Assembly: GCA_944392485.1 (NCBI GenBank)
Contig: CALXWO010000001.1
Location: forward strand, 114,725-178,724
Direction: 5' to 3'
From: an uncultured Clostridia bacterium
GTDB taxonomy: Bacteria; Bacillota; Clostridia; TANB77; CAG-508
DNA length: 64,000 nt
Under the pieces are notes generated by a model that was not told the DNA's origin, made no database searches, and was given only the letters and a program-made list of their open reading frames with translations. Positions within the stretch are counted from its first letter, which is position 1. Each line of letters opens with the position of its first letter. Positions 3,596-53,677 of this stretch are shown here, one piece after another. A program made the position numbers and the translations under genes.

Positions 3596-3776
3596 TTAAA
3601 TTGTAATTTGTGTGTGTCTCAAATGGGACGGTTCTTGATGGGTCGTTTCCTCAACGTTGTAGGGGTCGCACTCCTGGGCGACCCGAAAATCGGGTATACG
3701 GGGCGCCGAAGACAGCGCCCCCTACATCAAAAAACCAAATTTCAAAAACAAAATTTATTCATACAAATTACAATTT
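3596..3776. repeat. MITE-like element (same terminal inverted repeats) carrying a GC-rich TGTAGGG...CCCTACA three-hairpin cargo
   Basis: AAATTGTAATTTG...GTTGTAGGGGTCGCACTCCTGGGCGACCCGAAAATCGGGTATACGGGGCGCCGAAGACAGCGCCCCCTACATC...CATACAAATTACAATTTG. Confidence 0.75.
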
Positions 3777-3838: not shown

Positions 3839-4363
3839 TTAATTGTATTTATTATGCCTTGTATTCCGACTTTGCTCTTCTTCTATTACAACTTGTTCTG
3901 TAGCAGGTTCTATATAATCTGTTTTAGGTAGTGTAATATATGTTGTCTGTTTTGAATTTAGTTTTTGCATACCTAGTTTTTCTTTTGCTTCTTGTTCTAA
4001 ATTATTTAAATTTAATCCACTTTCTATAGAAATCTCAAGTTGCGTATTTTGTTTTTGCACTTCCGCCAGTTTTTCCTTAGTTTCTTGTACTTTAGCAAAA
4101 TTTTCGTCAATTTGTGAGTTCCTATAACATAGTCCAAATAATACTAAAAATCCTATTGCTAAATACTTAATGGCTCTATTTTGTTGCTTTTTTATTTCCT
4201 TTACATTGCTACTTCTTTTACTCGTTGGTTTTACTTTTCTGGCAGTACTTTTTTTTGTTTTATACGGATTTTTTATAGGTGTATACTCTGGCTCAAGTTT
4301 TCTTGGGCTTGTTTCATATTGATATTTATTAAAATTTCTTGGCAATTTATACACCTCCTTCAA
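3839..4363 (-). CDS. FtsL-like cell division protein (septum formation initiator family), lysine-rich N-terminus
   Basis: Position between rsmH and the PBP; single TM (AIKYLAIGFLVLFGLCY) followed by coiled coil. The start codon is ambiguous (TTG inside a GAAGGAGG motif). In-frame CGG three codons... near the C-terminus (3866-3868). Confidence 0.5.
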   Translation of the reverse strand: MKEVYKLPRNFNKYQYETSPRKLEPEYTPIKNPYKTKKSTARKVKPTSKRSSNVKEIKKQQNRAIKYLAIGFLVLFGLCYRNSQIDENFAKVQETKEKLAEVQKQNTQLEISIESGLNLNNLEQEAKEKLGMQKLNSKQTTYITLPKTDYIEPATEQVVIEEEQSRNTRHNKYN

Positions 4364-4484: not shown

Positions 4485-5427
4485 TTAATTTCTTTCAAAT
4501 ACTCTTAATTTTGCACTTTTACTTCTTGAGTTGTTTTTTATTTCTTCATTACTAGGTAATATTGGCTTTTTAGTAATTACTTTTCCTAATTTCTTCTTTC
4601 CACATATGCAATATGGTAAATCTGGTGGGCATGTGCATCTACCTGTTGCATCTAAATATGCTTGTTTTACTGCTCTATCCTCTAATGAATGAAATGTTAT
4701 TACACACAATCTTCCACTTATATTTAATATTTCTATGCATTTTTTTATTGTATTATATAGTGGTTCAATTTCGTTATTTACTGCTATTCTTATAGCTTGA
4801 AAAGTTCTTTTAGCTGGATGCCCATGTTTATCCAAACCGTTTTTTGGTATGCTATTTTCTATTATTTTAACCAACTCTTCTGTTGTTGATATTTTTCCTT
4901 TTTTTCTATATTCGCAAATACTTTTAGCAATTCTTCTTGAAAATTTTTCTTCACCATATTCAAAAATAATATTTGCAAGTTCTTCTTCTTTATAATTATT
5001 TATAATATATTCTGCAGTTAAAGTTTGGGATTTATCCATTCTCATATCTAGTGGTCCATTTTGCATATAGGTAAATCCTCTAGATTTTTCGTCTATTTGG
5101 TATGAAGACACACCTAAATCTAGTAAAATTCCATCAACTTTTTCTATATTTAATCTTTCTATTATTTCTTTTATATTATCGTGATTATCATGAACATAGA
5201 TAATATTTTTATATTCTTTTAATCTTTCCTTTGCTGACTGCAATGCTTCTGTATCTCTATCTATTCCTATAAGTAGTCCTTTGTTTGATAGTCTTTTTGC
5301 TATCTCTATGCTATGTCCTGCACCTCCGCATTGTTCCATCTATGTATATTCCATCTGGTTTTATATTTAAATTTTCTATACATTCATTTAGCATTACTGG
5401 ATAATGGTTAAATTTTATATTTTCCAA
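4485..5427 (-). CDS. rsmH: 16S rRNA (cytosine1402-N4)-methyltransferase RsmH/MraW, interrupted by a +1 (CGG) site at 5326-5328
   Basis: Conserved RsmH core ([18 protein letters not shown]). The N-terminal 30 aa (TTG start, [24 protein letters not shown]) are in another frame. Sense ATG CGG AGG becomes ATG GGA GGT, giving the DGTMGGAGHS motif. Confidence 0.8.
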
Positions 5428-5796
5428 TTAATATTCAACCTCTAATCTCTAATACGTATAAACAGTTGGTATGTATATTTACCAACTGTCATTCCTTCTT
5501 TGTTTTATCTTTATCTTTTGTGTTTTATTAGGTAGCTTTTAGGCTACCTAATTTGTCTTTTGTACTTCTACAACCTTCTTAAAAAAGTTGCATTATTCTT
5601 TTGTATATATAATTTCACTTTCGTAAATTATATTTTTTTCATTTGTATTATTTAAACTTTTGTATTTTAATAATATTATTTCTTTTGTAATTATTTATCT
5701 TTTGTAATTATTTAATTTTTCTTTTGTAATTTGTAATTATTTTATCTTTTGTACATTAGTATTTTATCTTTAGTTTTTTATATAAACTTTTGCAAG

Positions 5797-6228
5797 TTAT
5801 ATACCTAGGTTTTCCATTCTTTCTGCAATTTCGTCAGCTTCCATGTTTTCTTGTTCGCTGTATTTAAGCCATTTTTCTTTGCTCCAAATTTCTATTTTGT
5901 CAAGCACTCCTATAATTACTACTTCTTTTTCCAACGAAGCAAACTCTCTTAAATTACTACTTATTAAAAATCTCCCTTGTTTATCTAATTCACATTCAGT
6001 TGCTTTTGCAAGGAAAAATCTTTTTAGAGCTCTTGCATCTTTGTTAGTAAGTGGAAATGTTCTTAATTTATCTTCGAAGTTTTTCCATTCGCTTTGTGAA
6101 TACACAAATAAGCATCCATCTAAACCCTGTGTTATAACAAACTTTTCGCCAATATCTTCTTTTAATTTAGCTGGCATTATAAGTCTTCCTTTTGCATCTA
6201 TATTGTGCTCGTATTCACCTATTAACAA
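5797..6228 (-). CDS. mraZ: transcriptional regulator MraZ
   Basis: Duplicated MraZ domains ([22 protein letters not shown]...; ...[13 protein letters not shown]); likely TTG start preceded by GGTGGA; first gene of the dcw cluster. Confidence 0.8.
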
Positions 6229-9034: not shown

Positions 9035-9052
9035 AACAAACTCCTTTGAAAC

Positions 9053-9300
9053 TTTTTTGCTCGGAGCAATTTTTCCGCAGGATGAGACCTTTTCGCTCGG
9101 AGCGATTTTTCCGCAGAGCAAGACCTTTTCGCTCGGAGCAATTTTTCCGCAGAAAATTTCCTTAATTTATTTTATCATTCAAAGTAAGATATTGCAACGA
9201 GACCTTTTTGCTCGGAGCGATTTTTCCGCGGGGAGACTTTTTCGCTCGGAGCGATTTTTCCGCGTCAAGATTCTTCCCTTAATCTCTTTCCTTATCAAAG
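9053..9300. repeat. REP-like tandem array A (3+2 units of a 33-34-bp hairpin repeat, orientation GCTCGGAGCAATTTTTCCGC)
   Basis: Directly abutting 33-34-bp units with no spacers. Each unit contains a TTGCTCCGAGCAA-type palindrome. Higher-order duplication of [REP units + ttccttaat...tcaaag tail]. Confidence 0.8.
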
Positions 9301-9336: not shown

Positions 9337-10104
9337 TTAATCTTCTTGGCATTCTTTTACAGCTTTTGACATTTTTGATTTGCCAATTTTCAAAAATTTT
9401 CTAACATTCGCTTGCTTATACCCTTTATTTAAAATTATTTCTCTACAAAATTCCTTTAACAACTTTTTATCTTCTTTTATTTCACTTATTTTTATATCAT
9501 GCTTTTCCTCAAAAAACTTAATTGCAATTTCCAAATTCTTATTTTCTCTGTCAACATCCATAATTTCAATTTCTACGTTTGATATGTTTAAAAATATATT
9601 TAAATAGTTGCTTTCTGTGCCGAAAATTTTATTTAAAACCACATCATCAACTATACCCTTTTTATTTAAATAATCGTTATAAGTTGAATACTTATAATCT
9701 TTTGGTGCTTTTACCATGTTTGCTTTTACTGGATTCATATGTATGTAGTTTAAGCATCTTAATAAATAGGTTACACTATCTATATACTCACTATTAAATC
9801 TTCCTCTAAAAACATATCCTACTCTTCCTTTTTCTTTATTATAAAACAATGCATATTTCGAATTTATATTTTGCATGAAAGTTGAAAGCTGGGCTACTTT
9901 TTCAGTATAAATTAAAAGATGTGCATGATTATCCATCATACAATATGCCAAGACTAAAATATTATATTTATTTTTGTATTTCTTAATTAAATTAATATAC
10001 TTAATTTTGTAATCATCTCGGTTAAAAATATACTCTTTATTTAAGCCCTGAACCATGACATGGAAAAAGCCTTTGTCATTTAAACCTCTAGGCAAACTAA
10101 TCAA
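9337..10104 (-). CDS. REP-associated tyrosine transposase (RAYT, IS200/IS605 HUH-Y1 superfamily) with a lysine-rich C-terminal extension
   Basis: N-terminal LPRGLNDKGFFHVMVQGLNKEYIF, HUH motif MMDNHAHLLI, Tyr motif YIHMNPVKANMV; flanked on both sides by inverted REP arrays. Confidence 0.7.
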   Translation of the reverse strand: MISLPRGLNDKGFFHVMVQGLNKEYIFNRDDYKIKYINLIKKYKNKYNILVLAYCMMDNHAHLLIYTEKVAQLSTFMQNINSKYALFYNKEKGRVGYVFRGRFNSEYIDSVTYLLRCLNYIHMNPVKANMVKAPKDYKYSTYNDYLNKKGIVDDVVLNKIFGTESNYLNIFLNISNVEIEIMDVDRENKNLEIAIKFFEEKHDIKISEIKEDKKLLKEFCREIILNKGYKQANVRKFLKIGKSKMSKAVKECQED

Positions 10105-10292
10105 TTATTATATCCTCCTTTTATATATTTTTATTTTGGTTTTTGGGAAATTTATTAAAGATATTTTAAGAATTAAATATTTATAATTTTATATTTAAAA
10201 TACTGTTTTTGCAAGATAAACTTTACCTTGTTTTTCAGCAAAATAAGACATTTATTTTAAAAATTTGACTAAAATTTAAATTAAATTTTTGC

Positions 10293-10458
10293 CGCGGAAA
10301 AATTGCTCCGAGCAAAAAAGTCTCCTGCGGAAAAATTGCTCCGAGCAAAAAAGTCTCCTGCGGAGAAATTGCTTCGAGCGAAATGGTCTCCTGCGGAAAA
10401 ATTGCTCCGAGCGAAAAAGTCTCCCCGCGGAAAAATTGCTCCGAGCGAAATGGTCTCA
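10293..10458. repeat. REP-like tandem array B (5 units, orientation GCGGAAAAATTGCTCCGAGC, inverted relative to array A)
   Basis: Same 33-34-bp unit (consensus roughly GCGGAAAAATTGCTCCGAGCRAAAWRGTCTCCT), head-to-tail, ending at the amidase stop. Confidence 0.8.
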
Positions 10459-11203
10459 TTGGTAAAAGTAGTCCATTATTCCTGTGTATATTCCCCATGC
10501 TAGTTTGTTTTGGTATTCGTCTGTTTGCAATAATTGCTCTTCTTCGGGATTTGATAAAAATCCACATTCTATTATTGTTGTTGGTATTTCTACATGGTCT
10601 ATTATATAAATGTTTTCTATGTTTTTTGGTTCTCTTTTGTTTTCTTTTTGCATAGTTTGATTTAAATTTGTTTGTATTACTGTTGCAAGTTTTTTCCCTT
10701 GCTCATTTCCTTTTTTATAAAATGTTTGCCAACCCCAATATTGTTCCTGTGAAATTTTGTTTAGGTGTATTGATACAAATATATCGGCACTAGATTCATT
10801 CCCTATTTTTACTCTGTTATGTATGTCTGATATTTTCTTTTGCTTAATTGTTGTACTGTTTATGTCATATATTGCATTTTCATCAGATCTTGTAAGTATA
10901 ACTGTTGCTCCTGTTTGTTCTAATAAATTTTGAATTTTTGTTGCTATTTTTAAGTTTATTTCTTCTTCTGTTGTTCCCTGCTTGCTTTGTGCTCCTTCAT
11001 CTGGTAAACCATGCCCGTGCATCTATTATTATTGTTTTATTATTTGTTGGTAAAGCTACTGTTTGCATTGAGTCAATTTCTTTTTTGTTTGTATTTTTTA
11101 CATTATAGTTTGTTATTACAAATGTTAATATTAATAACATAATTAACCCAAATACTTTTAATATGTTTTTTCCATTTATAACAACCATAATAAAACACCT
11201 CAT
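10456..11203 (-). CDS. N-acetylmuramoyl-L-alanine amidase (amidase_3, CwlD-like) with a +1 (CGG) site at 11015-11017
   Basis: Signal/TM N-terminus ...KTIIIDA then a frame break. Sense GAT GCA CGG GCA TGG becomes GAT GCA GGG CAT GGT, giving the IIIDAGHGLPDEGA motif; downstream ADIFVSIHLN motif. Confidence 0.75.
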
Positions 11204-40749: not shown

Positions 40750-41697
40750 TTATTTATCGTATTCAAATAAATCTCCTAATGGTTTTGCTTCATTTAGCCT
40801 TTTTATTGCTTCTGCAAACAAAGGTGCAATTGATACTACTTTTATTTTATCAATTCTTTTTTCTGGTTCTAGCGGAATTGTATTTGTTACTACTAACTCT
40901 TTTATTGGTGATTTTTCTATTCTTTCTATTGCTGGTCCTACTAAAACACCATGTGTTGCTCCTGCATAAATTTCTTTTGCTCCATGTGCTTCCAAAATAT
41001 GTGCTGCTTCTACTAAAGTTCCTGCTGTACTTACTTCATCGTCAAATATTACTGCTGTTTTTCCTTCTATATCCCCTATAATATTTGTTGCTACTGCATT
41101 GTCATTATTTGATTCTCTTCTTTTATCTATTAATGCAAGTGGGCATTCAAAAAATTTAGAATATTTATATGCTTTTTTAGAGCTTCCTGCATCTGTTGCA
41201 ACTACTACCATGTTTTCTAATTGTTTGCTCTCAAAATACTTTTCTAGCAAATGTTTTGCTGTTACTCTATCACAAATTATATTAAAATATGCTTGAATTG
41301 CTGGATTGTGTAAATCGCATGTAAGCACATGGTTTACTCCTGCAGCTTCTAATAATGTTGCCATTAATTTTGCTGTTACAGGAACTCTTGATTGATCTTT
41401 TTTATCTGACCTTGAATACATAAAATATGGTAAAACTGCTGTTATCCTTCTTGCTCCTGCTCTTTTTACCGCTTCTATTGTTATTAATAATTCCATTATT
41501 CTTTCGTTTACAGGAGGCTCAGTTGTTTGTACTATGTATACATCTTGTTCTCTAACTGTTTCTTTTAATTGCACAAAATTATTATCATTTGCAAACTTAA
41601 AAGAATCTCTTTCTCCCATTTTTATTCCTAAATTATCGCATATTTCTTTTGTAAATTCTTCTGCGGAATTGCAGGCAAAAATTTTAATATTCTCCAT
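40750..41697 (-). CDS. prs: ribose-phosphate pyrophosphokinase
   Basis: Probable start MENIKIF with AGGGGG RBS; PRPP synthetase motifs (DLHNPAIQAYF, VATDAGSSKKA). Confidence 0.85.
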   Translation of the reverse strand: MENIKIFACNSAEEFTKEICDNLGIKMGERDSFKFANDNNFVQLKETVREQDVYIVQTTEPPVNERIMELLITIEAVKRAGARRITAVLPYFMYSRSDKKDQSRVPVTAKLMATLLEAAGVNHVLTCDLHNPAIQAYFNIICDRVTAKHLLEKYFESKQLENMVVVATDAGSSKKAYKYSKFFECPLALIDKRRESNNDNAVATNIIGDIEGKTAVIFDDEVSTAGTLVEAAHILEAHGAKEIYAGATHGVLVGPAIERIEKSPIKELVVTNTIPLEPEKRIDKIKVVSIAPLFAEAIKRLNEAKPLGDLFEYDK

Positions 41698-41842
41698 CTT
41701 TATCCCCCTATTCAAAATTCGAAGAATTTTTGCACTTTTCTTCCTTTGCTATTAATTCTTCACTTTTTTTGTCGGATTTTAACATATTTATTTTAGCATT
41801 AGCTTTATGGGATTTCAATATTAAAACAAAATAATTTTATAA

Positions 41843-41895
41843 ATTGAATTTTGTTTTGTGATGTGTGAGGTGCAAAGTGTGAGGTTTGCTTTTTA
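41843..41895. repeat. degenerate half-copy of the MITE-like GT-rich module abutting REP array C
   Basis: AAATTGAATTTTG TTTTGTGATGTGTGAGGTGCAAAGTGTGAGGTTTGCTTTTTA versus the 38001 copy. Confidence 0.6.
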
Positions 41896-41898
41896 AAT

Positions 41899-42066
41899 GG
41901 AAAATTTGCTCCGAGCAAAAAAGTCTCTTCGCGGAAAAATTGCTCCGAGCAAAAAAGTCTTCTTGCGGAAAATTTGCTCCGAGCAAAATGGTCTTCTCGC
42001 GGAAAATTTGCTCCGAGCGAAAAAGTCTCCTCGCGGAAAATTTGCTCCGAGCAAAATGGTCTCCGG
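41899..42066. repeat. REP-like tandem array C (5 units)
   Basis: Same 33-34-bp unit, direct orientation; downstream of the rpoC stop. Confidence 0.8.
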
Positions 42067-42072
42067 GCAAAA

Positions 42073-42104
42073 AAACAGAGGGATTTTGTTTCCCTCTGCT
42101 TTTT
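42073..42104. terminator. bidirectional terminator at the rpoC 3' end
   Basis: CAGAGGG-attttgttt-CCCTCTG flanked by A-run and T-run. Confidence 0.6.
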
Positions 42105-45100
42105 TTATTCTACTGATTCACCTGTTTGATTTTCTTGTTCTTCTGTGTTTATATGTATATTTCTATATGCTGGCATTCCTGTTCCTGCTGGGATTAATTT
42201 TCCTATAATTACGTTTTCTTTTAATCCTATTAATGAATCTATTTTTCCTTTTATTGCAGCTTCTGTTAATACTCTTGTTGTTTCTTGGAATGATGCTGCA
42301 GATAGGAAGCTTTCTGTTGCAAGTGATGCTTTTGTTATACCAAGTAATGCTCTTGTTCCTGTTGCAGGTCTTTTTCCTTCTTCTGTTGCTTTTTTGTTTT
42401 CTTCTTCAAATTCATGTATGTCTATTAATTCTCCTGTAAACATTGATGTGTCTCCATTGTCTATTACTTTAATCTTTTTAAGCATTTGTCTTCCTATAAC
42501 TTCTATGTGTTTGTCGTTTATATCAACACCTTGATTTCTATAAACTTTTTGAACTTCAGATGTTAGATAATTATATACACCTTCTGGTCCTTTTATTTCT
42601 AATATTTCGTTTGGATTTATAGATCCTTCTGTAATTGGATCTCCTGCTTTTATTTCATCTCCGTCTTTTACTTTAAGTTTTGATCCAAAGCTAATTGCAT
42701 ATGTTTTTGAGTTGTCTTTTCCTGTAACTGTAACTTCTTTTCTCTTTTTAACTTCTGCAATTTTTACAGTACCGTCTATTTCTGAAATAACTGCAAGTCC
42801 TTTTGGTTTTCTTGCCTCGAATAATTCTTCAACCCTAGGTAAACCTTGTGTAATGTCTCCTCCTGCTACACCACCTGTGTGGAAAGTTCTCATTGTAAGC
42901 TGTGTACCTGGCTCACCAATTGATTGTGCAGCTATTATTCCTACTGCTTCTCCTATACTTACTTCTTTTCTTGTTGCAAGTCCCATTCCATAGCATTTTG
43001 CACATACTCCATGTTTTGTTCTGCATCCTAAAACTGAACGTACTTCTACTTTTGTTATACCTGCTTTTACTATTTTTTCTGCTATGTCTGGTGTGATTAA
43101 TGTATCTGTATCTGCAAGTAGTTCTTTTGTTTTTGGATCTATTATATTATGTAGTGGATATCTACCAACTAATCTTTCTTCTAATTTCTCTATTATTTGG
43201 TTTCCATCTTTTATATCTTCTATTTCTATTCCTTCAATTGTTCCACAATCATGTTCTCTAACAATTATGTCTTGTGCAACATCAACTAATCTTCTTGTTA
43301 AGTATCCAGAGTCTGCTGTTCTTAAAGCAGTATCTGCTAAACCTTTTCTTGCACCGTGTGAAGAAATAAAGTATTCTAGAACATCTAGTCCTTCTCTGAA
43401 GCATGATTTAATTGGTATTTCTACAGTTTTTCCTGATGTGTTAGCCATAAGTCCACGCATACCTGCAATTTGACGTAATTGGTTCATGTTACCTCTTGCT
43501 CCAGATTGAGCCATCATGTATATTGGGTTTAAATCGTCAAAATTATCTTTCATAGCTTCTGTAACGTCGTTTGTTGCTTTTTCCCATACTTTAATTATTG
43601 AAGAATATCTTTCATCTTCTGTTATTAAACCACGTTTATATTGTTTTCCTATTTCTTCTACTTGTTTTTCACTGTCTGCAAGTATTTTTTTCTTTGCTGC
43701 TGGTACTGCAACATCATGTACAGAAACAGTAATTGCACCTTTTGTAGAATATTTAAATCCAAGTGCTTTAATGTAATCTAGTAATTCTGCAGATCTATTT
43801 AATCCGTGTTTATCTATACATTTTGCAATTATTGTTCCTAAATTCTTTTTCATAACAGGAAAATCTATTTCTAAATCAAATGCTTTATCTGGATCTGTTC
43901 TATCTACAAAACCTAAGTCTTGTGGAACTTGTTCGTTATATATTAATCTTCCTACTGTTGCAATTATTGTTTTTGTTTTCTTTTCTCCGTTTATTTCTTT
44001 AGTTATTCTTACTTTAACTTTAGCGTGTAAACCTACATCTCCATTTTGATAAGCAAGAAGTGCTTCGTCTACATCTTTAAAGTACATTCCTTCGCCTTTT
44101 TCTCCATCTATTTGCATTGTTAAATAATAGCTTCCTAGTATCATATCTTGTGTAGGAACTGTAACTGGTTTACCATCTTGTGGTTTTAAAAGGTTATTTA
44201 CAGAAAGCATTAAATATCTTGCTTCTGCTTGTGCTTCTGGAGATAATGGAACGTGTACTGCCATTTGGTCTCCGTCAAAGTCAGCATTGAAGGCTGTACA
44301 AACTAATGGATGTAATTTTATTGCTCTTCCTTCTACTAACACTGGCTCAAATGCTTGTATACCTAATCTATGTAAAGTTGGTGCACGGTTTAGCATAACT
44401 GGATGGTCAGAAATTACTTCTTCTAGTATATCCCATACTTCTGGTCTTAATCTTTCTACCATTCTTTTTGCATTTTTTATATTATGTGCTATTCCTCTTC
44501 CAACTAATTCATGCATAACAAATGGTTTAAATAGCTCTATTGCCATTTCTTTTGGAAGTCCGCATTGATATATTTTAAGTTCTGGCCCTACTACTATAAC
44601 TGAACGTCCTGAATAGTCAACACGTTTTCCAAGTAAGTTTTGACGGAAACGTCCTTGTTTTCCTTTAAGCATATCTGATAATGATTTTAAAGGTCTATTT
44701 CCAGCACCTGTAACTGGTCTTCCACGTCTTCCGTTATCTATTAAAGCATCTACAGATTCTTGAAGCATTCTCTTTTCGTTTCTTACAATTATTTCTGGTG
44801 CTCCTAATTCTAATAATCTTTTTAACCTATTATTTCTGTTTATAACTCTTCTGTATAAATCATTTAAGTCAGATGTTGCAAATCTTCCTCCATCTAGTTG
44901 AACCATTGGTCTTAGTTCTGGTGGTATTACTGGAATAACACTCATTACCATCCATTCTGGTTTGTTTCCAGATAGTCTAAAGCTTTCTACTGTATCTAGT
45001 CTTTTTACTAGCTTTGATTTTTTTTGTTCACTTGCTTTTTCTAGTTCTTTTTTTAGTTTTGCTGATAATTTTTCTAAGTCTACTTCTTGCAATAATGTTC

Positions 45101-45668
45101 TTATTGCTTCTGCTCCCATTTTTGCAACAAAAGAACCTTTTCCGTATTTTTCTTCTGCCTCTCTATATTCTTTTTCTGATAATACTTGGCATTTCATAAG
45201 GTCTGTTTTTCCTTTGTCAAGTACTATATATGAAGCAAAATATATAACTTTTTCTAGACTTCTTGGAGATATATCTAGAATTAAAGCTACTCTGCTAGGT
45301 ATTCCTTTAAAATACCAAATATGTGCAACAGGTGCTGCAAGTTCAATATGTCCCATTCTTTCACGTCTTACTTTTGATTTTGTAACTTCTACTCCACATC
45401 TATCGCATATAATTCCTTTATATCTTACTCTTTTATATTTACCACAATGACATTCCCAGTCTTTTGTTGGTCCGAATATTTTTTCACAAAATAGTCCATC
45501 TTTTTCTGGTTTTAAAGTTCTATAGTTTATTGTCTCTGGTTTTTTTACTTCACCTTTTGACCATTCTCTAATTTTTTCGTCAGATGCAAGTCCTACTTTT
45601 ATTTTATTAAATATGTTTAACTCATCTTTAACTTCTTTGTTTTCCATTAAGGCTCTTTCCTCCTTCAA
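42105..45668 (-). CDS. rpoC: DNA-directed RNA polymerase subunit beta'
   Basis: 1187-aa intact [12 protein letters not shown] catalytic motif, zinc-binding Cys clusters. Confidence 0.95.
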
Positions 45669-45689
45669 AATTCGTATGTATGTAGGGTC

Positions 45690-45895
45690 AGATTCTATAT
45701 CTGCTCAGGCGAAAATACATCCCGCCCCTACAATATTTGTAATGCGTTTTTACAATATCTCTAAAATTAAATATACACTGCTCGAACAATTCCTTCCTGT
45801 GATTTAATTTTATTATATTGTTTTATTCAATTAAATCCATATTTGTAGGGGCGATTTTTAATCGCCCGCGGACGAACACAGTTCGTCCCTACAAT
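45690..45895. repeat. two GC-rich multi-hairpin elements delimited by TGTAGGG...CCCTACA in the rpoB-rpoC spacer
   Basis: GTAGGGTCAGATTC...CATCCCGCCCCTACAA and TGTAGGGGCGATTTTTAATCGCCCGCGGACGAACACAGTTCGTCCCTACAATG; >55% GC in a <30% GC genome. Confidence 0.7.
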
Positions 45896-45949
45896 GTCTT
45901 TTATAAAACGAAGCAAAATTGGTATATTGTGCATTTTAGTTACTTTTGC

Positions 45950-48900
45950 TTATTCATCTAAAATATCCTTATCATTCATAAGATTATCTGTTGCAAGGTC
46001 ATTATCAAATATTTCAGAGTCTTCTTCTAAAGCTAATTCGTCTTCATTTAAATCTTCTTCAAAGTCTTCTTCTATAAAGTCTCCAGATATTTCTTCTTCA
46101 TCTATAACTGTATCTTCTTCTGGCATAACTTTATTTAGATCTTCTAGGTTTAAATCTATTCCTTCATCTATGTTTTCTTTTAGTTCTAATTCTTCATCAT
46201 CTTCTGAATACAAGCGTACATCTAAACCTAAACTTTGTAATTCTTTAACTAATACTTTAAAGCTTTCTGGAACTCCTGGTTCTGGAACATTTTCTCCTTT
46301 AACAATTGATTCGTATGTTTTTACTCTTCCTACTACGTCGTCAGATTTTATTGTTAAAATTTCTTGTAGTGTATATGCTGCTCCATATGCTTCTAATGCC
46401 CATACTTCCATTTCTCCAAATCTTTGTCCACCAAATTGTGCTTTACCTCCAAGAGGTTGTTGTGTAACAAGTGAATATGGTCCTGTAGAACGTGCATGTA
46501 TTTTATCGTCTACTAAGTGGTGAAGTTTAAGCATGTACATTACACCAACTGTTATTGGTTTGTCAAAAGGTTCTCCAGTTCTTCCATCATAAAGAATTGT
46601 TTTTCCATCTTCTGATAGACCAGATTCTTTTAACATCTCTACAATATCTTCTTCTGTTGCTCCATCAAATACTGGTGTTGCAACTTTCATTCCAAGTAAT
46701 CTTGCTGCTGCACCTAGGTGAACTTCTAAAACTTGCCCTAAGTTCATACGTGAAGGTACACCAAGTGGATTTAATACAACGTCAACTGGTGTTCCGTCTG
46801 GCATAAATGGCATATCTTCTACTGGTAATATTCTTGAAATAACACCTTTATTACCATGACGTCCAGACATTTTATCTCCAACTGATATTTTTCTTTTTTG
46901 AGCTATGTATACACGAATTACTTCGTTTACTCCTGGCCCTAGTTCATCTGAATTTTCTCTATTATATATTTTTACATCAACTACTGTTCCTGCTTCTCCA
47001 TGTGGTACTTTTAAAGATGTATCTCTTACTTCTCTTGCTTTTTCTCCAAATATTGCACGAAGTAATCTTTCTTCTGCAGATAGTTCTGTTTCTCCTTTTG
47101 GTGTAACTTTTCCAACCAATATATCTCCTGGTCTTACTTCTGCTCCAATTCTTATAATACCATTTTCATCTAAATCTTTTAAACTTTCTTCACCTGTATT
47201 AGGTATGTCTCTTGTTATTTCTTCTGCTCCAAGTTTTGTGTCTCTACATTCACAATCATATTCTTCTATATGAATTGATGTATAAACGTCTTCTTTAACT
47301 AATCTTTCACTTAATAAAATAGCATCCTCATAGTTATATCCTTCCCAAGTTGTAAATGCTATAAGAACATTTTTACCAAGTGCCATTTCTCCATTTTGTG
47401 TAGAAGGCCCGTCTGCAATTACATCATTTGCTTTTACTTTTTCTCCTTTTACTACTATTGGGTGTTGGTTAATACATGTTCCTCCATTTGTTCTTTTAAA
47501 TTTACGTAGTTTATATGTATCTTTTTCTCCGTTTTTAGTTTTTATAATAATTTCGTCACCTGTAACTCTTTCAACTACACCATCATTTTTTGCAAGAACC
47601 ATTATTCCTGAGTCTTTTGCTGCTTTATATTCTATACCTGTTCCAACTATTGGAGAATCTGTAATCATAAGAGGCACTGCTTGACGTTGCATGTTTGCAC
47701 CCATTAATGCACGGTTTGCGTCATCATGCTCTAAGAAAGGAATCATTGCTGCACCTACAGAAACTAATTGTTTTGGAGATACGTCTATGTAATCCACTTT
47801 GTCTGCTTCTACTTCTGTAACTTCATCTAAGTATCTTACTTTTATTTTTTTGTTTTTAAATTTACCGTCTTTTGTCATTGGCTCTGTTGCTTGTGCAATT
47901 ATATGTCCATCTTCTTCATCTGCTGTCATATATATAACTTCATCTGTTACTTTATGTGTTTTTGGATCAATTTTTCTATATGGTGTTTCTACAAATCCAT
48001 ATTCGTTTATTACTGCAAATGTTGAAAGTGCAGATATTAACCCAATGTTTGGTCCTTCTGGTGATTCTATTGGACAAAGTCTTCCATAGTGAGTATAGTG
48101 AACGTCACGAACTTCGAATCCTGCTCTTTCTCTTGAAAGTCCTCCAGGTCCTAATGCTGAAATTCTTCTTTTATGTGTTAATTCTGATAATGGGTTTGTT
48201 TGATCCATAAATTGTGACAATTGTGAACTACCAAAAAATTCTCTAATTGATGATGTTATTGGCTTTGTATTTATTAATGTTTGTGGTGTTATAACATCTA
48301 GGTCTTGTATTGTCATTCTTTCACGAACAACTCTTTCAAGTCTTGTAAGACCAATTCTAAATTGGTTTTGTAATAGCTCACCTACACATCTAATACGTCT
48401 ATTTCCTAAATGGTCAATGTCATCTACTTTTCCTAGCCCATATTGTAAATTTAATAAATAGTTTACTGATGAAATCATGTCTTCTGTTACAATATGTTTT
48501 GGAACTAATTCTTCTTCTCTTTCTTCTATTACTTTTTTTAGATCTTTTTTATCTGTATTGTCTAATATATTTTTTAACACTTCATAGTTTACTAATTCTT
48601 TAATTTTTATTCCTAACTTGTCTACATCTACATATGCTCTAATATCAACTGTTCCATTACCAATTACTCTAATTTTTTGGTCATCTACTTTTATATCTAC
48701 TATGTTTATTCCTAAATTTTGTATTTCTTTTGCTTTTTCTTCTGATATTATTGCATCTTTTTCTACTAAAATTTCTCCAGTTTCGCTGTTTAAAATGTCA
48801 TTAAATGCTACTTGTCCTGCTATTCTAGATGCTAAGTTAAGTTTTTTATTATATTTGTATCTTCCTACTTTTGCTAAATCATATCTTCTTTTATCGAAAA

Positions 48901-49672
48901 ATAAATTGTTAAATAAATTTCTAGCAGCATCAACTGTTGGAAGCTCTCCTGGTCTTAATTTTTTATAAATTTCTACTATTGCTTCTTCACTAGTTTTTAC
49001 AGTATCTTTTGCAATTGTTGCTAGTATTTTTTTATCTTCTCCAAACACATCTATTATTTGGTCATCAGAAACAAGCCCTATTGCTCTTAATAGAACTGTT
49101 ACAGGTAGCTTTCTTGTTCTGTCTATTCTTACATAGAATATATCGTTACTGTCTGTTTCATACTCAAGCCATGCTCCTCTAATTGGCATAACTGTAGCTT
49201 TATATAGTTTTTTGCCTGATTTGTCATAATCTGACTCATAATAACAGCCTGGTGAACGTACAAGTTGGCTTACTACAACTCTTTCAGCACCATTAATTAC
49301 AAAAGTACCACTATCTGTCATTAATGGAAAATCACCTAAATAAATTTCTTGTTCTTTAATTTCTCCAGTTTCACGGTTAATTAGTCTTACTTTTACATGT
49401 AATCTTGTAGAATAAGTTGCATCCCTTTCTTTTGCTTCTTCTACTGAATATTTAGTTTTTTCTTCCATATAATAATCAAAAAACTCTAAAACTAAATTAC
49501 CAGAATAATCTACAATTGGTGATATATCTTTTAAAACTTCTCCTAAACCTTCTTTAATAAACCAATTGTAAGAATCTTTTTGCACCTGAATAAGGTTTGG
49601 CATTCCTATAAAATCCCCTATTCTTGCAAATGTTTTTCTTGTTGCTTTTTCATACTTTAAGTCTTTTAACAA
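45950..49672 (-). CDS. rpoB: DNA-directed RNA polymerase subunit beta
   Basis: 1240-aa intact ORF with canonical RpoB blocks. Confidence 0.95.
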
Positions 49673-50350
49673 AATAAATCAACTCCCCCTAATTTTAATG
49701 AAAAGTTAAGAGTGAAGAGTTAAAAGTTTTGGAATTTTTCGACATTTAGCCGAAAAATAACATTTACTATTCATTCTTCCTTTCTAACTATTCATTTTCT
49801 TTTTTGTTTGAGCAGATATATTTATTTAGAAATTCTAAGTTATAAGTTTCTAACTCGTAATTCCTAACCAAATCAAACAAGGTCCCTCTTAAATATTAAT
49901 GTATTATAATCGCCAAAACCGTACTGCCCTAAATGAGTTTTGATTATTATAACCTAAATTAATATTTAATTCCTCCTTACTTGATTATTTTAAACAACAC
50001 AAAAAAGTGTAGGAGATTTGTTTTTTATTTTACTCAACGGACGTATGTAATGCTTACGTCCCTACACTTTTTTTAATTTTATCTATTTAATAACAATTAT
50101 ATTTTTTATCTTAACCACCCTTATTATATAAGAGCTACATATTCTATGACAAAATATGTGCTGTATAATAATATCATATAAAAATGTGGCTTGTCAACAT
50201 TTTGTAATATTTTTTTAACATTTGTGTTGTGAGAAGTGGGATGTGGGAAGTGTGAAATTAGAGTAAACCTAACAATACCTAGCCCTAAAAAGCATACCTC
50301 ACACCTCACACTTCGCATATCACATATCACAAAAACAAATTACAATTTGT

Positions 50351-50866
50351 TTAATTACTTTTTATAATATGATTTATCTTTCCTAAAAATTCACCTATAT
50401 GTGGACTGCTGGCTCGTCCATAATTAATAGAATTATAATTATTGTTTTTAAAATCTATTTGCCATTCTAAAATATTATACTCTTTTTTATTTTTAATTTC
50501 ATTATTTAAATCCAGCACAAAGAATCTAGGTATTTTTTTAGCCAGCACTAAGCTTGCGCAAACAGTTTGCAAGCATTTATTATTAGATGCTGGCATTATA
50601 AAATTTAAAACTTTGAGTTCATTGTCCAATATGGAATATGAAATTCCAAAATCTTTTGGGTTGACTTGTAAATCCAAATCTATAATATCAAAATCATCTA
50701 TCCACTCAGCTTCAATTTTTGTTTCATTCCATAATTTACAAAGGTATTGTTTTAATATGTCAGGCCCTTGTACTAGTAGGGTGTTAAACTTTTCCCACTC
50801 TTCAAATACAAAATCTCTTAATTTTTCGTTTGCCAATAAGTAACTTATACTTATTTTTTCTTCCAT
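50351..50866 (-). CDS. hypothetical protein (171 aa)
   Basis: ORF only; flanked by repeat elements. Confidence 0.35.
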   Translation of the reverse strand: MEEKISISYLLANEKLRDFVFEEWEKFNTLLVQGPDILKQYLCKLWNETKIEAEWIDDFDIIDLDLQVNPKDFGISYSILDNELKVLNFIMPASNNKCLQTVCASLVLAKKIPRFFVLDLNNEIKNKKEYNILEWQIDFKNNNYNSINYGRASSPHIGEFLGKINHIIKSN

Positions 50867-51113
50867 ATCTTCACCTATTTATATATACTTTATATTTATA
50901 CTTAAAATAATATCATAGTACAGCCATGTTGGAAATAATGTTATAGTTTTTATTAATCGTTAATTGACATAATTTTTATGTTTTTTGTTTTTCCCAATAT
51001 ATGCCATAATATAACAATCTTCCTTTGATTTTTAAATTATGTATTTTTATCATAATAAAATTATATTAAATTTGTATTAATAAATGCATAAATTAAATTG
51101 TTACTTTTTATTT

Positions 51114-51416
51114 TTAATCTGTGAAAATGTTTATCGAATTTAAAATATCTCTAGAATGGTGAATAATTTTTAAGATATAAATGTTAGAATTAACTTTATA
51201 AAAAATTCTATATGATTTGTATATTAATTCTCTAAAATTTTTATTATCGTATTCGGGTATCTTTCTTCCCATATATGGAAATGTTGATAAATATTTTATT
51301 TTTTCTATTATTCCTTCTATTGTTTTATTTGCATAATATATAGAATTTCTTGAAATATATTTTTGTATTTGTTTTAAATCATCTTTAGCATCTAATTCTA
51401 GTTTTATATTTACCAA
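51114..51416 (-). CDS. type II toxin RelE/ParE family
   Basis: About 100 aa, ...PYMGRKIPEYDNKNFRELIYKSYRIFYKVNSNIYILKIIHHSRD... RelE/ParE signature; TTG start. Confidence 0.55.
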   Translation of the reverse strand: MVNIKLELDAKDDLKQIQKYISRNSIYYANKTIEGIIEKIKYLSTFPYMGRKIPEYDNKNFRELIYKSYRIFYKVNSNIYILKIIHHSRDILNSINIFTD

Positions 51417-51621
51417 TATTAAGTTCTCTTTCTATTTCATCTATTGTATAAGTTAACCCTAACTCTATTCCTTTTTCTCCGCGTGCTACACATATATTTA
51501 CTATATCTGCTCTTGTTGAATTTGGGGCATTTATTATCTCTTTTTCCATTTTGCATAATTCCTCATAAGGTAATTTTTTTAATTCTTCAAGTTTTCTTCT
51601 GTTTTCCTCAACATATGTCAT
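51385..51621 (-). CDS. putative cognate antitoxin (78 aa), overlapping the toxin start by 32 nt
   Basis: Position and size only. Confidence 0.3.
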   Translation of the reverse strand: MTYVEENRRKLEELKKLPYEELCKMEKEIINAPNSTRADIVNICVARGEKGIELGLTYTIDEIERELNIGKYKTRIRC

Positions 51622-51775
51622 AATATCACAACCTTTCTTTGGTTTTTAATTTATGCATTTATTTGAAAATTATTATATATTAAAAGGAAAAAACTGTCAA
51701 TTGTTTTTTTGACAGTTTTTGTTGGTAATTGTTTGGAAATTGGAATTTAAATGAGAAAATTAATTGCAAACATTG

Positions 51776-51947
51776 TAGGGGCGAACTGTGTTCGCCCGCA
51801 AACAAATCATTTTTGGCAGATATGGAATCTGCCCCTACAACGTTTTCAATAAAATTTTTGTTTTTCAGACGGCTTTCTTGCCGTCCCTACATTTCTAACA
51901 TCTAATTTCTAACATCTAACCTCTAAATTACAATTTATACTTTTCTC
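51776..51947. repeat. GC-rich TGTAGGG...CCCTACA hairpin elements plus TCTAACATCTAA direct repeats and a solo MITE terminal inverted repeat (CTAAATTACAATTT) at the hydA 3' end
   Basis: TGTAGGGGCGAACTGTGTTCGCCCGC...GGCAGATATGGAATCTGCCCCTACAACG; GACGGCTTTCTTGCCGTCCCTACA. Confidence 0.7.
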
Positions 51948-53677
51948 TTTTATGGTATGTTGTATGTAATAATTCATGTGCTTTATGGCTTCCTGGTTTT
52001 TCTAAATATTCTTTATATAATTTTATCATTACTGGATTTTCGTGTGATTTTCTAACAACGCTTTTTTCATCAATGCTATATAAGCAGTCTGCTCTTAATT
52101 TTTTTACATCGTATTTACTTCTTTGTTTTGATGTTTTTATTGGCTGTCCTCCACCCATTATACATCCTCCTGGGCATGCCATTATTTCTACGAATTGATA
52201 ATCTGCCTTTCCTGATTTTATTTCTTCCATTATTTTTCTTGCGTTAGAAAGTCCACTTACTACTGCAACTTTAACAACTTTATCTCCAATTTTTATGCTG
52301 GCTCTTTTTATTCCCTTTTGTCCTCTTACGGCTTCGAAATTTAGTTTCTTTAGTTCTTCTCCTGTTATTGTTTCATATGCGGTACGAAGAGCCGCTTCCA
52401 TTACTCCTCCTGTTACTCCAAATATTGCTCCTGCTCCACTTGCTTCTCCCATTGGGCTATCAAACTTACTATCTTCTAATTCTACAAAATCAATATTTGC
52501 TTGTTTTATCATTCTAGCAAGTTCACGTGTTGTAATTACTGCATCTACATTATCTAATTTATCATTTTTTAATTCTTCTCTTTGTCTTTCAAATTTTTTT
52601 GCTATACATGGCATTACTGATACAACAAACATTTTCTTTGGGTCTATATTTTCTTTTTCTGCATAATACGTTTTCAAAATTGCTCCAAACATTTCATGTG
52701 GTGATTTACAACTTGATAAATGGTCTAATAATTCTGGATAATTCATTTCTATATATTTTACCCATCCAGGACTACAAGATGTTATCATTGGAAGTGTTCC
52801 ACCTTTTGTAAATCTTTCCACAAATTCGTTTGCTTCCTCCATAATTGTTAAATCTGCACCTGTATTTGTATCAAATACTCTATCAAATCCCAATATTTTA
52901 AGTGATGTTACCATTTTACCTGTTACATTTGTACCAATTTTCATTCCAAATTCTTCTCCTAATGCTGCTCTTACTGCTGGTGCTGTTTGTACAACTACAA
53001 ATGTATCTTCGTCTTTTAATTTTTCCCATACTACATCTGTACTATCTTTTTCGCGAAGAGCTCCCACCGGACATGCTGTAATACATTGCCCACAAAATGT
53101 GCAATTAACATCATTTAAACTATTATCTCCAACAGTTGAAACACATGAATTAAATCCTCTATTTACACAATCTATTGCACCTATTTTTTGTATGTTTTTA
53201 CATGTTGATATACATCTTCTGCAAAGAATACATTTATTAAAATCTCTAACTATTGAAGGTGATAAGTCATCAATTTTATGTTTTGTTCTTTCTCCTTCAT
53301 ATTCTACATCTGTTACATTAAATTGCATAGCAAGTGTTTGAAGTTCACAATTTCCGTTTCTAGTACATGTTAAGCAGTCTCTTTGATGATTTGACAAGAT
53401 TAAATCTAATATTACTTTTCTTGCCTCCATAATTTGCTTCGAATGAGTATGTACTCGCATTCCTTCTTCTACTTGTTGAATACAAGATGTAGCAAATCCT
53501 TTTTTTCCGCTCCACTTCTACTATACATATTCTACAGTCTCCTATAGCATTTACTTCTTTTAAAAAGCAAAGAGTTGGAATATCAATATTTGCTTGCTTT
53601 GCAGCTTGCAAAATTGTAGTACCCTTTGGAACTTCTACATCTATTCCATCAATATTTAATTTAACCATATCAGACAT
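51928..53677 (-). CDS. hydA: [FeFe]-hydrogenase catalytic subunit HydA (N-terminal 2Fe-2S ferredoxin domain + H-cluster domain) with a +1 (CGG) site at 53507-53509
   Basis: MSDMVKLNIDGIDVEVPKGTTILQAAKQANIDIPTLCF...CRICIVEVE then sense GAG CGG AAA. Skipping the C gives VEGKKGFATSCIQQVEEGMRVHTHSKQIMEARK...; H-cluster motifs TSCSPGW, MPCIAKK, EIMACPGGC. Confidence 0.8.

Follow-up and report, generated by a model that had tools for sequence, protein, structure and literature searches.

Probable GTAG-tagged REP elements, mostly arranged head to head, in the spacers of a very A+T-rich uncultured Clostridia genome

The 64-kb stretch of DNA analysed here, referred to below as the window, has a G+C content of about 28% and carries nearly all of its genes on the minus strand, among them rpoB and rpoC, which are separated by a spacer of 302 nt (Table 1). 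In a scan of the species genome collection with RpoC, the nearest genomes were MAGs of uncultured Clostridia/Clostridiaceae, with 86-88% identity over RpoC residues 1-300 and no relative above 88%; several ENA gut-type metagenome assemblies hold contigs that are 99.6-100% identical to the window. Six intergenic sites (E1 to E6) contain 12 repeat units of one design. Two of these sites lie in the rpoB-rpoC spacer, E3 56 nt downstream of the rpoB stop and E2 18 nt upstream of the ribosome-binding site of rpoC, and E4 and E5 are assigned to the 3' untranslated region of hydA because a terminator-like hairpin lies downstream of both. All six sites, together with two further sites in contig L226, sit between co-directional genes; over the window and the 10 kb beyond it, the density in this genome is about 15 units at 8 sites in 74 kb, all of them intergenic.

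Table 1. Repeat elements and neighbouring features, in window coordinates
Feature	Position	Strand	Description
Composite element around E1	3598-3776		179 nt, bounded by AAATTGTAATTTGT inverted repeats
E1	3658-3726		head-to-head dimer of putative REP units, 69 nt
Y1 transposase gene	9337-10104	minus	Pfam Y1_Tnp match
rpoC	42105-45647	minus	ATG at 45647; GGAGG ribosome-binding site about 10 nt upstream of ATG
E2	45681-45732		decayed head-to-head dimer of putative REP units, 52 nt
E3	45844-45893		compact head-to-head dimer of putative REP units, 50 nt
rpoB	45950-49672	minus	
E6	50009-50066	minus	half-decayed dimer of putative REP units between a 171-aa gene and rpoB
Terminator-like hairpin	51689-51720	minus	downstream of E4 and E5
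E4	51774-51839		head-to-head dimer of putative REP units, 66 nt, hydA 3' region
E5	51866-51891	minus	single putative REP unit, 35 nt downstream of the hydA stop

The repeated entity is a unit of about 24 nt and not the whole TGTAGGG...CCCTACA block. Each unit consists of (T)GTAG followed by a G+C-rich stem of 6-9 bp starting with GGG or GGA, a loop of 3-9 nt and the complementary arm, and many units have in common a 5' extension TTGCAAAC(R)T. At four sites (E1-E4), two units stand head to head with GTAG on the outside, which produces the TGTAGGG...CCCTACA block, and E5 and E6 hold one intact unit each; further head-to-head dimers are found in L205 and L226. The GTAG tag is located at the stem end in 12 of 12 units, a single foot (in E6) being degenerated. 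The bottom of the stem is GGG/CCC in 8 of the 12 units and GGA/TCC in the right unit of E3, in E5 and in E6, the left unit of E2 being too decayed to score.

More specifically, (i) the left unit of E1 is TGTAG + GGGTCGC..GCGACCC and the right one GGGGCGC..GCGCCCC + CTACA, with a small hairpin, ACCCGAAAATCGGGT, at the centre; (ii) E2 retains intact TGTAGGG and CCCTACA feet, its inner stems being eroded; (iii) E3 reads TGTAG-GGGCGAT-TTTTA-ATCGCCC-GC-GGACGAAC-ACA-GTTCGTCC-CTACA; (iv) E4 is composed of TGTAG-GGGCGAAC-TGT-GTTCGCCC and GGCAGAT-ATGGA-ATCTGCC-CCTACA, separated by an 18-nt A+T-rich spacer; (v) E5 reads TGTAG-GGACGGC-AAGAAA-GCCGTCT on the minus strand; (vi) the intact unit of E6 reads TGTAG-GGACGTA-AGCATTACA-TACGTCC on the minus strand, its other foot having degenerated (TGTAGGA on the left, TCCTACA) and the left hairpin having decayed and been lost. 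Folded as DNA, the elements give z-scores of -2.5 to -6.9 (E2, -2.5; E3, -6.9; E4, -4.7).

A preliminary description of this DNA, made from its letters, had placed copies at these six locations. All six exist, with coordinates that were up to about 40 nt off and most ends within 20 nt, and the larger MITE-like element in which one copy had been seen is the composite of which E1 forms the core. The proposed architecture, an outer stem enclosing GC-clamped hairpins, applies to E1-E4, in which the TGTAGGG/CCCTACA stem encloses the unit hairpins, those of E2 being weak only. A local G+C content above 55% holds for E1 (65%) and E5 (58%) and not for E3 (54%), E2 and E4 (48% each) or E6 (36%).

The units stand out from the rest of the window in several ways. 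TGTAGGG occurs 14 times on the two strands, against 2.5 +/- 1.7 in shuffled sequences, none of 100 shuffles reaching 14; four of these occurrences (1961, 29045, 53721 and 60842) are not elements. Among the 18 perfect G+C-rich hairpins of the window, eight have GTAG or CTAC within 0-1 nt of the foot. When a unit covariance model built from 30 units, three of them from the window, was run over the 64 kb with filters off, all 12 units, nine of which are not in the model, outranked every other site, with the exception of the decayed left arm of E2. Among the 16 model hits, this arm (7.6 bits, E 8.9) took the last place, behind three chance hits that had a best E of 1.6. Other scores were 16.3 bits for the right arm of E2, 38.9 and 38.7 for E3, 41.7 and 18.4 for E4, 16.1 for E5 and 17.1 for E6.

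The stems are under selection for pairing, as the preliminary description had proposed together with a search for compensatory changes by means of a covariance model. In an alignment of 30 distinct units, 99.2% of the cells are paired, against 86.6% in shuffles. The paired percentage is inflated, since in 17 rows the search pattern itself prescribed the outer six pairs and the Clostridial rows were picked by requiring a hairpin. In the same alignment, changes have taken place on both sides in five of the eight stem pairs, and the covariation score is 0.382 as compared to 0.117 in shuffles (0 of 500 as high) and 0.03-0.09 in slid controls. The pattern used on the viral collection fixed only TGTAGGGGCGA...TCGCCC and put no constraint on the inner stem. 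It matched more than 120 contigs of 32-73% G+C, and the first free pair was Watson-Crick in 59 of 66 distinct inner segments (shuffle mean 18.7, maximum 32), with all four pair types present. Individual compensations can also be read: one compensated pair separates GGGCGAAC/GTTCGCCC of E4 from GGACGAAC/GTTCGTCC of E3; the arms of the L205 dimer compensate each other (GGGCGGG/CCCGCCC versus GGGCAGG/CCTGCCC); and in strain L001 a C replaces the last T of E5, which restores the outermost pair. G-U pairs are rare, so that pairing is of the Watson-Crick type whichever strand is read, as it should be if the two DNA strands, or the DNA hairpin itself, are important.

The elements are gained and lost among strains and relatives. 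The four closest genomes contain no TGTAGGG/CCCTACA and no model hit over about 20 kb around rpoBC, and their rpoB-rpoC spacers measure 120-215 nt, against 302 nt here. Within the species, E2 and E6 are invariant in all six compared strains with identical RpoC, strains that differ by only 0.1-0.4% elsewhere. Two strains of the same species, L214 and L217 (RpoC identical, 99.6-99.9% DNA identity elsewhere), have the 119-nt block that contains E3 (45821-45939) replaced by an unrelated 132-nt palindromic repeat, which belongs to another family and is 85% identical to window positions 38019-38119; E3 is dispensable in nature, since these two strains live without it. L002 and L003, whose hydA is 99.4% identical, are devoid of both E4 and E5; the GTAG element that follows hydA in them is a different one. 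An inversion at E4, considered as the difference between L002 and the window, was withdrawn, the 25-nt match being explained by a shared 5' extension TTGCAAAC(R)TTGTAGGGG. As to E1, a second, roughly 90% identical copy of the composite is located 10 kb beyond the window, between ftsW and murG (L226, 13738-13904), and the composite is missing from the orthologous spacer of about 50 nt in the relatives L204 and L205, relative to which it is an insertion. Downstream of ftsW, L205 carries another REP dimer at the orthologous site.

Taken as a whole, the repeats are very probably GTAG-tagged REPs, mostly in the head-to-head arrangement known as REPIN, BIME or double-foot, and of the sort that RAYTs of the subclass-2.4 type serve. 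This reading builds on the anatomy, the covariation, the pattern of presence and absence, and the RAYT association that we observed in other low-GC Clostridia; by analogy, a RAYT would also mobilise the copies in this particular genome. By the same analogy, with E. coli and the model REP/RAYT pairs, the unit hairpin would fold when the DNA is single-stranded, for instance in the lagging-strand template, the RAYT (TnpA-REP), an HUH/Y1 tyrosine nuclease-transposase, would recognise the hairpin together with its 5' GTAG, and cutting and rejoining beside the hairpin would move or copy the element without target-site duplication. The likely partner is a RAYT of subclass 2.4 (Bertels Group 4). We propose that pairing in the stems is maintained by the requirement of the enzyme for a folded hairpin, and recognition by the enzyme would hold the G+C-rich foot against the 28% GC background. 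As a possible side effect, copies in transcribed spacers (rpoB-rpoC, hydA 3' end) would fold in the mRNA and may serve as passive 3'-end stabilisers or inter-cistronic insulators. Of the three candidates put forward in the preliminary description (an RNA-level element, protein-binding sites and a small mobile palindrome), among which it made no choice, the last is the best supported; by likening the repeats to REP stabilisers, that description had named the right family, the GTAG tag and the RAYT link having gone unrecognised.

A profile search of the window and the adjoining 10 kb found no subclass-2.4 RAYT, and the window copies could be orphans of a lost enzyme. In other organisms, a first search for RAYT genes near REP matches, using a motif regular expression and an HMM from the clade of the window's Y1 protein, gave no result in 120 loci of the viral collection. 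With a second HMM, which was derived from RAYT sequences in the literature, one was detected in L029, a locus that had been retrieved only for its REP match. The L029 RAYT displays the motifs HIHLLL, VWQKGFYDH and YIDGNP and contains two in-frame REPs, TGTAGGGGCGATCATTGATCGCCC. Its family comprises 20,147 cluster representatives at E <= 0.001, and the Clostridial clade about 1400 proteins at E <= 1e-10. The best 120 homologues all come from mid-GC Oscillospiraceae-like organisms, the low-GC members being reached only by an exhaustive search of the representatives. One A+T-rich member, P0276, contains the peptide GRTVFAPT, which is the translation of GGGCGAAC(A/T)GTGTTCGCCCCTAC, and the REP-encoded peptide GRxxxAPT is present in 100 of 118 homologues.

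The hairpin GTAGGGGCGAAC-NNN-GTTCGCCC occurs on the flanks of RAYT genes and, in frame, within them in Geosporobacter ferrireducens (source name of the homologue, "transposase [Geosporobacter ferrireducens]") and in several metagenomic contigs. In five independent low-GC loci (L219, 33% G+C; L220, 35%; L222, from G. ferrireducens, 39%; L223, 34%; L224/L225, 35%), GTAGGGGCGAAC-AGT-GTTCGCCC or a closely similar hairpin lies within the RAYT gene, and most of the five genes are also flanked by such units, L223 having three copies downstream; the in-gene copy of L224 reads GGACGGTC-ACA-GACCGTCC-CTAC. In-frame REPs are present in the RAYT genes of L029, L219, L220, L222, L223 and L224, which belong to related organisms and not to the window genome. 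A point against the link is the loop, which is AGT, ACT or AAT in the RAYT-linked copies versus TGT in the window. In the PDB, P0276 aligns only to E. coli TnpA-REP (4ER8), the alignment taking in the HUH and Y..NP motifs as well as the W-Q...D-H..R residues; the W-Q...D/E-H..R residues, which contact GTAG in the E. coli enzyme, are kept in the Clostridial RAYTs. These proteins score 57-70 bits on the NCBIfam model for REP-associated tyrosine transposases, below its 80-bit cut-off. REP copies in frame inside the RAYT gene are unique to subclass 2.4 (Quentin 2018, PMC6006769), and the combination of in-frame and flanking hairpins in the Clostridial RAYTs is this published hallmark.

We also considered whether the repeats could be dedicated RNA elements, selected in place for processing, stability or attenuation of the rpoB-rpoC and hydA transcripts and only resembling REPs. 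All copies lie in probably transcribed spacers, on the sense side of co-directional genes, and the invariance of E2, so close to the rpoC ribosome-binding site, and of E6 in six strains would fit a host function, although these strains are nearly identical elsewhere as well. The spacer RNA is predicted to fold much better than shuffled sequences (z -4.2 and -6.5), with a long-range pairing between E3 and E2. E. coli REPs stabilise the mRNA upstream of them, a property that we counted in favour of this reading. However, the same hairpin turns up in spacers that have no function in common, in organisms spanning 32-73% GC and on a phage contig, two conspecific strains carry an unrelated repeat in place of E3, and the closest relatives lack elements at the same sites; in addition, the elements are symmetric, with Watson-Crick pairs on both strands and few G-U pairs. 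The Rfam scan that had been suggested (release 15) gave no element match either at the gathering score, at which the whole window yielded two tRNAs only, or at E <= 1, at which the region 45600-52000 gave no hit. We therefore consider it distinctly improbable that an RNA-level element, the first candidate of the preliminary description, is the primary nature of the repeats. A passive effect of the predicted folds on mRNA stability or on rpoB-rpoC coupling is plausible.

A second alternative is that the elements are MITEs, deletion derivatives of a DDE-type insertion sequence that moved by means of terminal inverted repeats TGTAGGG/CCCTACA. Their inverted termini, small size and intergenic location would suit such an origin, as would the inclusion of E1 in a larger element with AAATTGTAATTTGT repeats that is present at least twice. 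Reading of the flanking sequences, however, revealed no target-site duplication beside the GTAG ends at any of the six sites. Single units exist (E5, L024, L223), and the conserved part is restricted to GTAG and the foot of the stem, the inner sequence varying with compensation. Moreover, the units flank and enter HUH/Y1 RAYT genes and show no association with a DDE transposase. An origin as MITEs is, on these grounds, very improbable.

A third alternative is that the repeats are served by the Y1 transposase gene of the window. This gene lies in the same genome, is vertically conserved (65% identity between orthologues, which share the Amidase_3-Y1-TrmFO-MraZ synteny) and, besides its Pfam match, reaches 72 bits with the NCBIfam model for REP-associated tyrosine transposases, whose cut-off is 80 bits. 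Both of its flanks, however, are inverted arrays of a different repeat of 33-34 nt around TTGCTCCGAGCAA, a core hairpin that also flanks the orthologues in L204 and L205. In place of the WQ..[FY].[DE]H..R of GTAG-reading RAYTs, the protein shows GYVFRGRF, and it ends in a long C-terminal extension, as in TIRYT / subclass 2.1, a type reported in the literature as not associated with GTAG REPs. Because of GYVFRGRF, the extension and its own flanking repeats, the gene fits the TIRYT / subclass 2.1 / Group 1 type. We consider a role in the mobility of E1-E6 most unlikely and rejected the gene as a partner on account of the different flanking repeats, the missing WQ motif and the C-terminal extension. 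A profile search for related loci, started from the alignment of this Y1 protein, returned one irrelevant viral locus.

Finally, that the elements are intrinsic terminators or binding sites for a host DNA-binding protein is hardly credible. In its favour, the hairpins are strong, rich in G+C and situated downstream of genes, runs of A and T border E6 taken as a whole, and E. coli REPs bind IHF, gyrase and Pol I (cited in PMC6006769). However, a terminator scan calls none of the elements, its only call on the minus (gene) strand being the separate hairpin downstream of E4 and E5 that is listed in Table 1, and termination would be harmful within the rpoB-rpoC operon, whose spacer holds two copies.

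The GTAG-tagged REPs described here are ordinary in kind, a canonical GTAG REP/REPIN population; their host, uncultured and very A+T-rich Clostridia, is mildly new. Work on REPs and on the RAYTs associated with them has dealt almost exclusively with Proteobacteria; the surveys consulted name no Firmicutes as hosts of GTAG REPs, and little has been published on clostridial RAYTs. Clostridia also have a large RAYT clade whose genes contain their own REP in frame. A G+C-rich foot that persists in a genome of 28% GC provides a natural read-out of the constraint that an enzyme exerts on its substrate. An identical 19-nt hairpin, GGGCGAACTGTGTTCGCCC, is found in this 28% GC genome and, as a dimer, on a contig of 54% GC (L088), and near-identical units lie between structural genes of a 32% GC phage contig (L024, which encodes a major head protein). 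It is rather unlikely, in our estimate, that this REP type moves between distant hosts, possibly on phages; if true, such movement would run against the view of strictly vertical REPIN-RAYT inheritance. A weaker proposal than this one is that copies inside essential operons (rpoB-rpoC, ftsW-murG) may have been recruited to tune how strongly the genes on either side are expressed relative to each other, with differences between strains. The current understanding of REPs is unchanged, and the value of these observations for annotation and for the host range of REP-RAYT systems is modest: G+C-rich islands of this type break assemblies, seed spurious ORFs and can pass for regulatory RNAs.

A literature search with the literal element sequence gave chance primer matches only. 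According to the accessible part of the survey by Di Nocera 2013 (PMC3733652), GTAG repeats are short stem-loops with an unpaired terminal GTAG at a stem of 6-13 bp and a short loop; they form 24 families, whose sub-families differ by complementary stem changes, and are extragenic, mostly downstream of co-directional or convergent genes, head-to-head dimers with GTAG outside being the commonest arrangement. Members of this superfamily are dispersed in tens to hundreds of copies per genome, as compared to about 15 units at 8 sites in the 74 kb covered here. The repeats of the window have the same terminal GTAG at the stem foot, short stem and loop, complementary changes, head-to-head dimers and extragenic location. 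They differ in their host, a 28% GC uncultured Clostridia genome that falls outside the groups named in that part of the survey (Proteobacteria, Cyanobacteria, Chloroflexi and the PVC group, with no mention of Firmicutes/Clostridia).

Like the REPINs of Pseudomonas and E. coli (Bertels & Rainey 2011, PMC3116915) and the E. coli BIMEs, the dimers consist of two inverted REPs with a short variable spacer that together form one long hairpin, and they are non-autonomous, are devoid of target duplications and form mosaics with other short repeats. Their stem sequences are unrelated to those of the Pseudomonas/E. coli REPINs, and they measure 50-69 nt, against about 100 nt. The Pseudomonas/E. coli systems have a RAYT in the same genome and copy numbers in the hundreds, whereas here there are about 15 units in 74 kb and the RAYTs come from other organisms. 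With respect to the enzyme, the Clostridial RAYTs align with E. coli TnpA-REP (PDB 4ER8; PMC3479197; PMC8266576) across the HUH, WQ...H..R and Y..NP motifs, and the REPs are of the perfect-palindrome class that is recognised via GTAG and the stem. The similarity between the proteins is low (E 1e-4), the Clostridial RAYTs are known from sequence alone, and the E. coli REP stems, unlike those described here, are bulged and imperfect. In design, the repeats also resemble the REPs of RAYT subclass 2.4 / Group 4 (PMC6006769; PMC5581495), to which the Clostridial clade is assigned by hallmarks and not by phylogeny, and for which the Haemophilus REP GTAGGGTGGGCTTCAGCCCACC (Nunvar 2010, PMC2817692) serves as comparison. 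RAYTs of this subclass are abundant in Cyanobacteria and Bacteroidetes and scattered elsewhere (PMC6006769). Their REPs have three G-C pairs at the bottom of the stem and occur as double-foot forms, GT[AG]G...C[TC]AC (Quentin 2018, PMC6006769), and the repeats of the window likewise combine GTAG followed by a three-G-C stem bottom with double-foot forms.

In the RAYT genes of the Clostridial clade, which we examined through loci L029, L219, L220 and L222–L225 and proteins P0121–P0507, an in-frame REP insertion occupies one fixed position after the HUH motif. The peptide GRxxxAPT is encoded by 100 of the 118 homologues, and many carry an additional VGAxxxRP or CRGExCSP peptide nearer the protein start. 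The middle residues of these peptides vary in step with the hairpin sequence.

GTAG REPs were also found on two IMG/VR contigs. L024 is a phage contig with a gene for a major head protein (PHROG 14242, E 6e-28), and at least five GTAG REP units of the form GGGCGAAC-ACT-GTTCGCCC-CTACA lie between its structural genes; therefore, phage genomes also host this REP type. In L088, whose base composition is far from that of the window, a head-to-head dimer contains an exact match to the 19-nt hairpin GGGCGAACTGTGTTCGCCC of E4, a REP site 3' of hydA. Finally, REP dimers occupy equivalent places downstream of ftsW in two related species (L205 and L226, the latter being the genome under study), with unrelated inner hairpins. 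Either the insertion is old and its copies have diverged by compensated changes, or the place is a hot spot that has been hit repeatedly.

A third repeat family consists of MITE-like elements of 130–180 nt, whose ends are AAATTGTAATTTGT and ACAAATTACAATTT; in several of them, GAAGTG-type purine-rich arms pair with CACTTC-type arms. An exact 12-mer of the family occurs 11 times. The elements take up the spacers between a stop codon and the ribosome-binding site that follows it, and in two strains one of them replaces E3, one of the two REP sites of the rpoB–rpoC spacer. This spacer shares a short motif, ATTGTTCG(A/T)GCA(G/A)TG, with the corresponding spacers of REP-free relatives (L124 and L125); the motif could be a signal native to the operon, for processing or regulation. 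The usual ribosomal-protein context is absent around rpoB–rpoC (window 36000–51000): upstream is the gene of a 171-aa protein that matches no Pfam family, and the downstream neighbours are prs (ribose-phosphate pyrophosphokinase), rpsU and a YqeY-like gene. Elsewhere in the window, a terminator-like sequence, made up of a 12-bp palindrome and the T run after it, overlaps with a perfect promoter-like site, TTGACA-17-TATAAT; directly downstream come a small ORF that is antitoxin-like and the gene of a ParE-family toxin.

Coordinates of the repeats, genes and sites described in the text
Feature	Sequence	Position	Strand
REP dimer downstream of ftsW	L205	20645-20714	
REP dimer downstream of ftsW	L226	13798-13865	
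MITE-like elements	window	38003-38136, ~50229-50349, 63618-63787, 3598-3776	
MITE-like element	L214 (same species)	5696-5827	
GTAG REP units	L024 (32% GC)	1413-1480, 1908-1935, 4684-4749	
Head-to-head REP dimer	L088 (54% GC)	near 4098	minus
Short motif, rpoB–rpoC spacer	window	~45772-45790	minus
Promoter-like and terminator-like site	window	51672-51720	minus
Antitoxin-like ORF and toxin gene	window	51114-51621	
Y1/HUH transposase gene	window	9337-10104	minus
Arrays of the 33–34-nt repeat	window	9048-9266, 10283-10460, 41871-42091, 57718-57904	

The window has a Y1/HUH transposase gene of its own, flanked on either side by inverted tandem arrays of a 33–34-nt repeat, GCGGAAAAATTGCTCCGAGCGAAAAGGTCTCCT, which forms two more arrays, one near 57.8 kb and one downstream of rpoC. 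Orthologues of this gene display 65% identity and a shared Amidase_3–Y1–TrmFO–MraZ synteny, and they are also bordered by the core hairpin of the window repeats; the system appears to be vertically inherited. The transposase is of the TIRYT (RAYT subclass 2.1-like) type and, together with its repeats, constitutes a second, non-GTAG, REPtron-like system.
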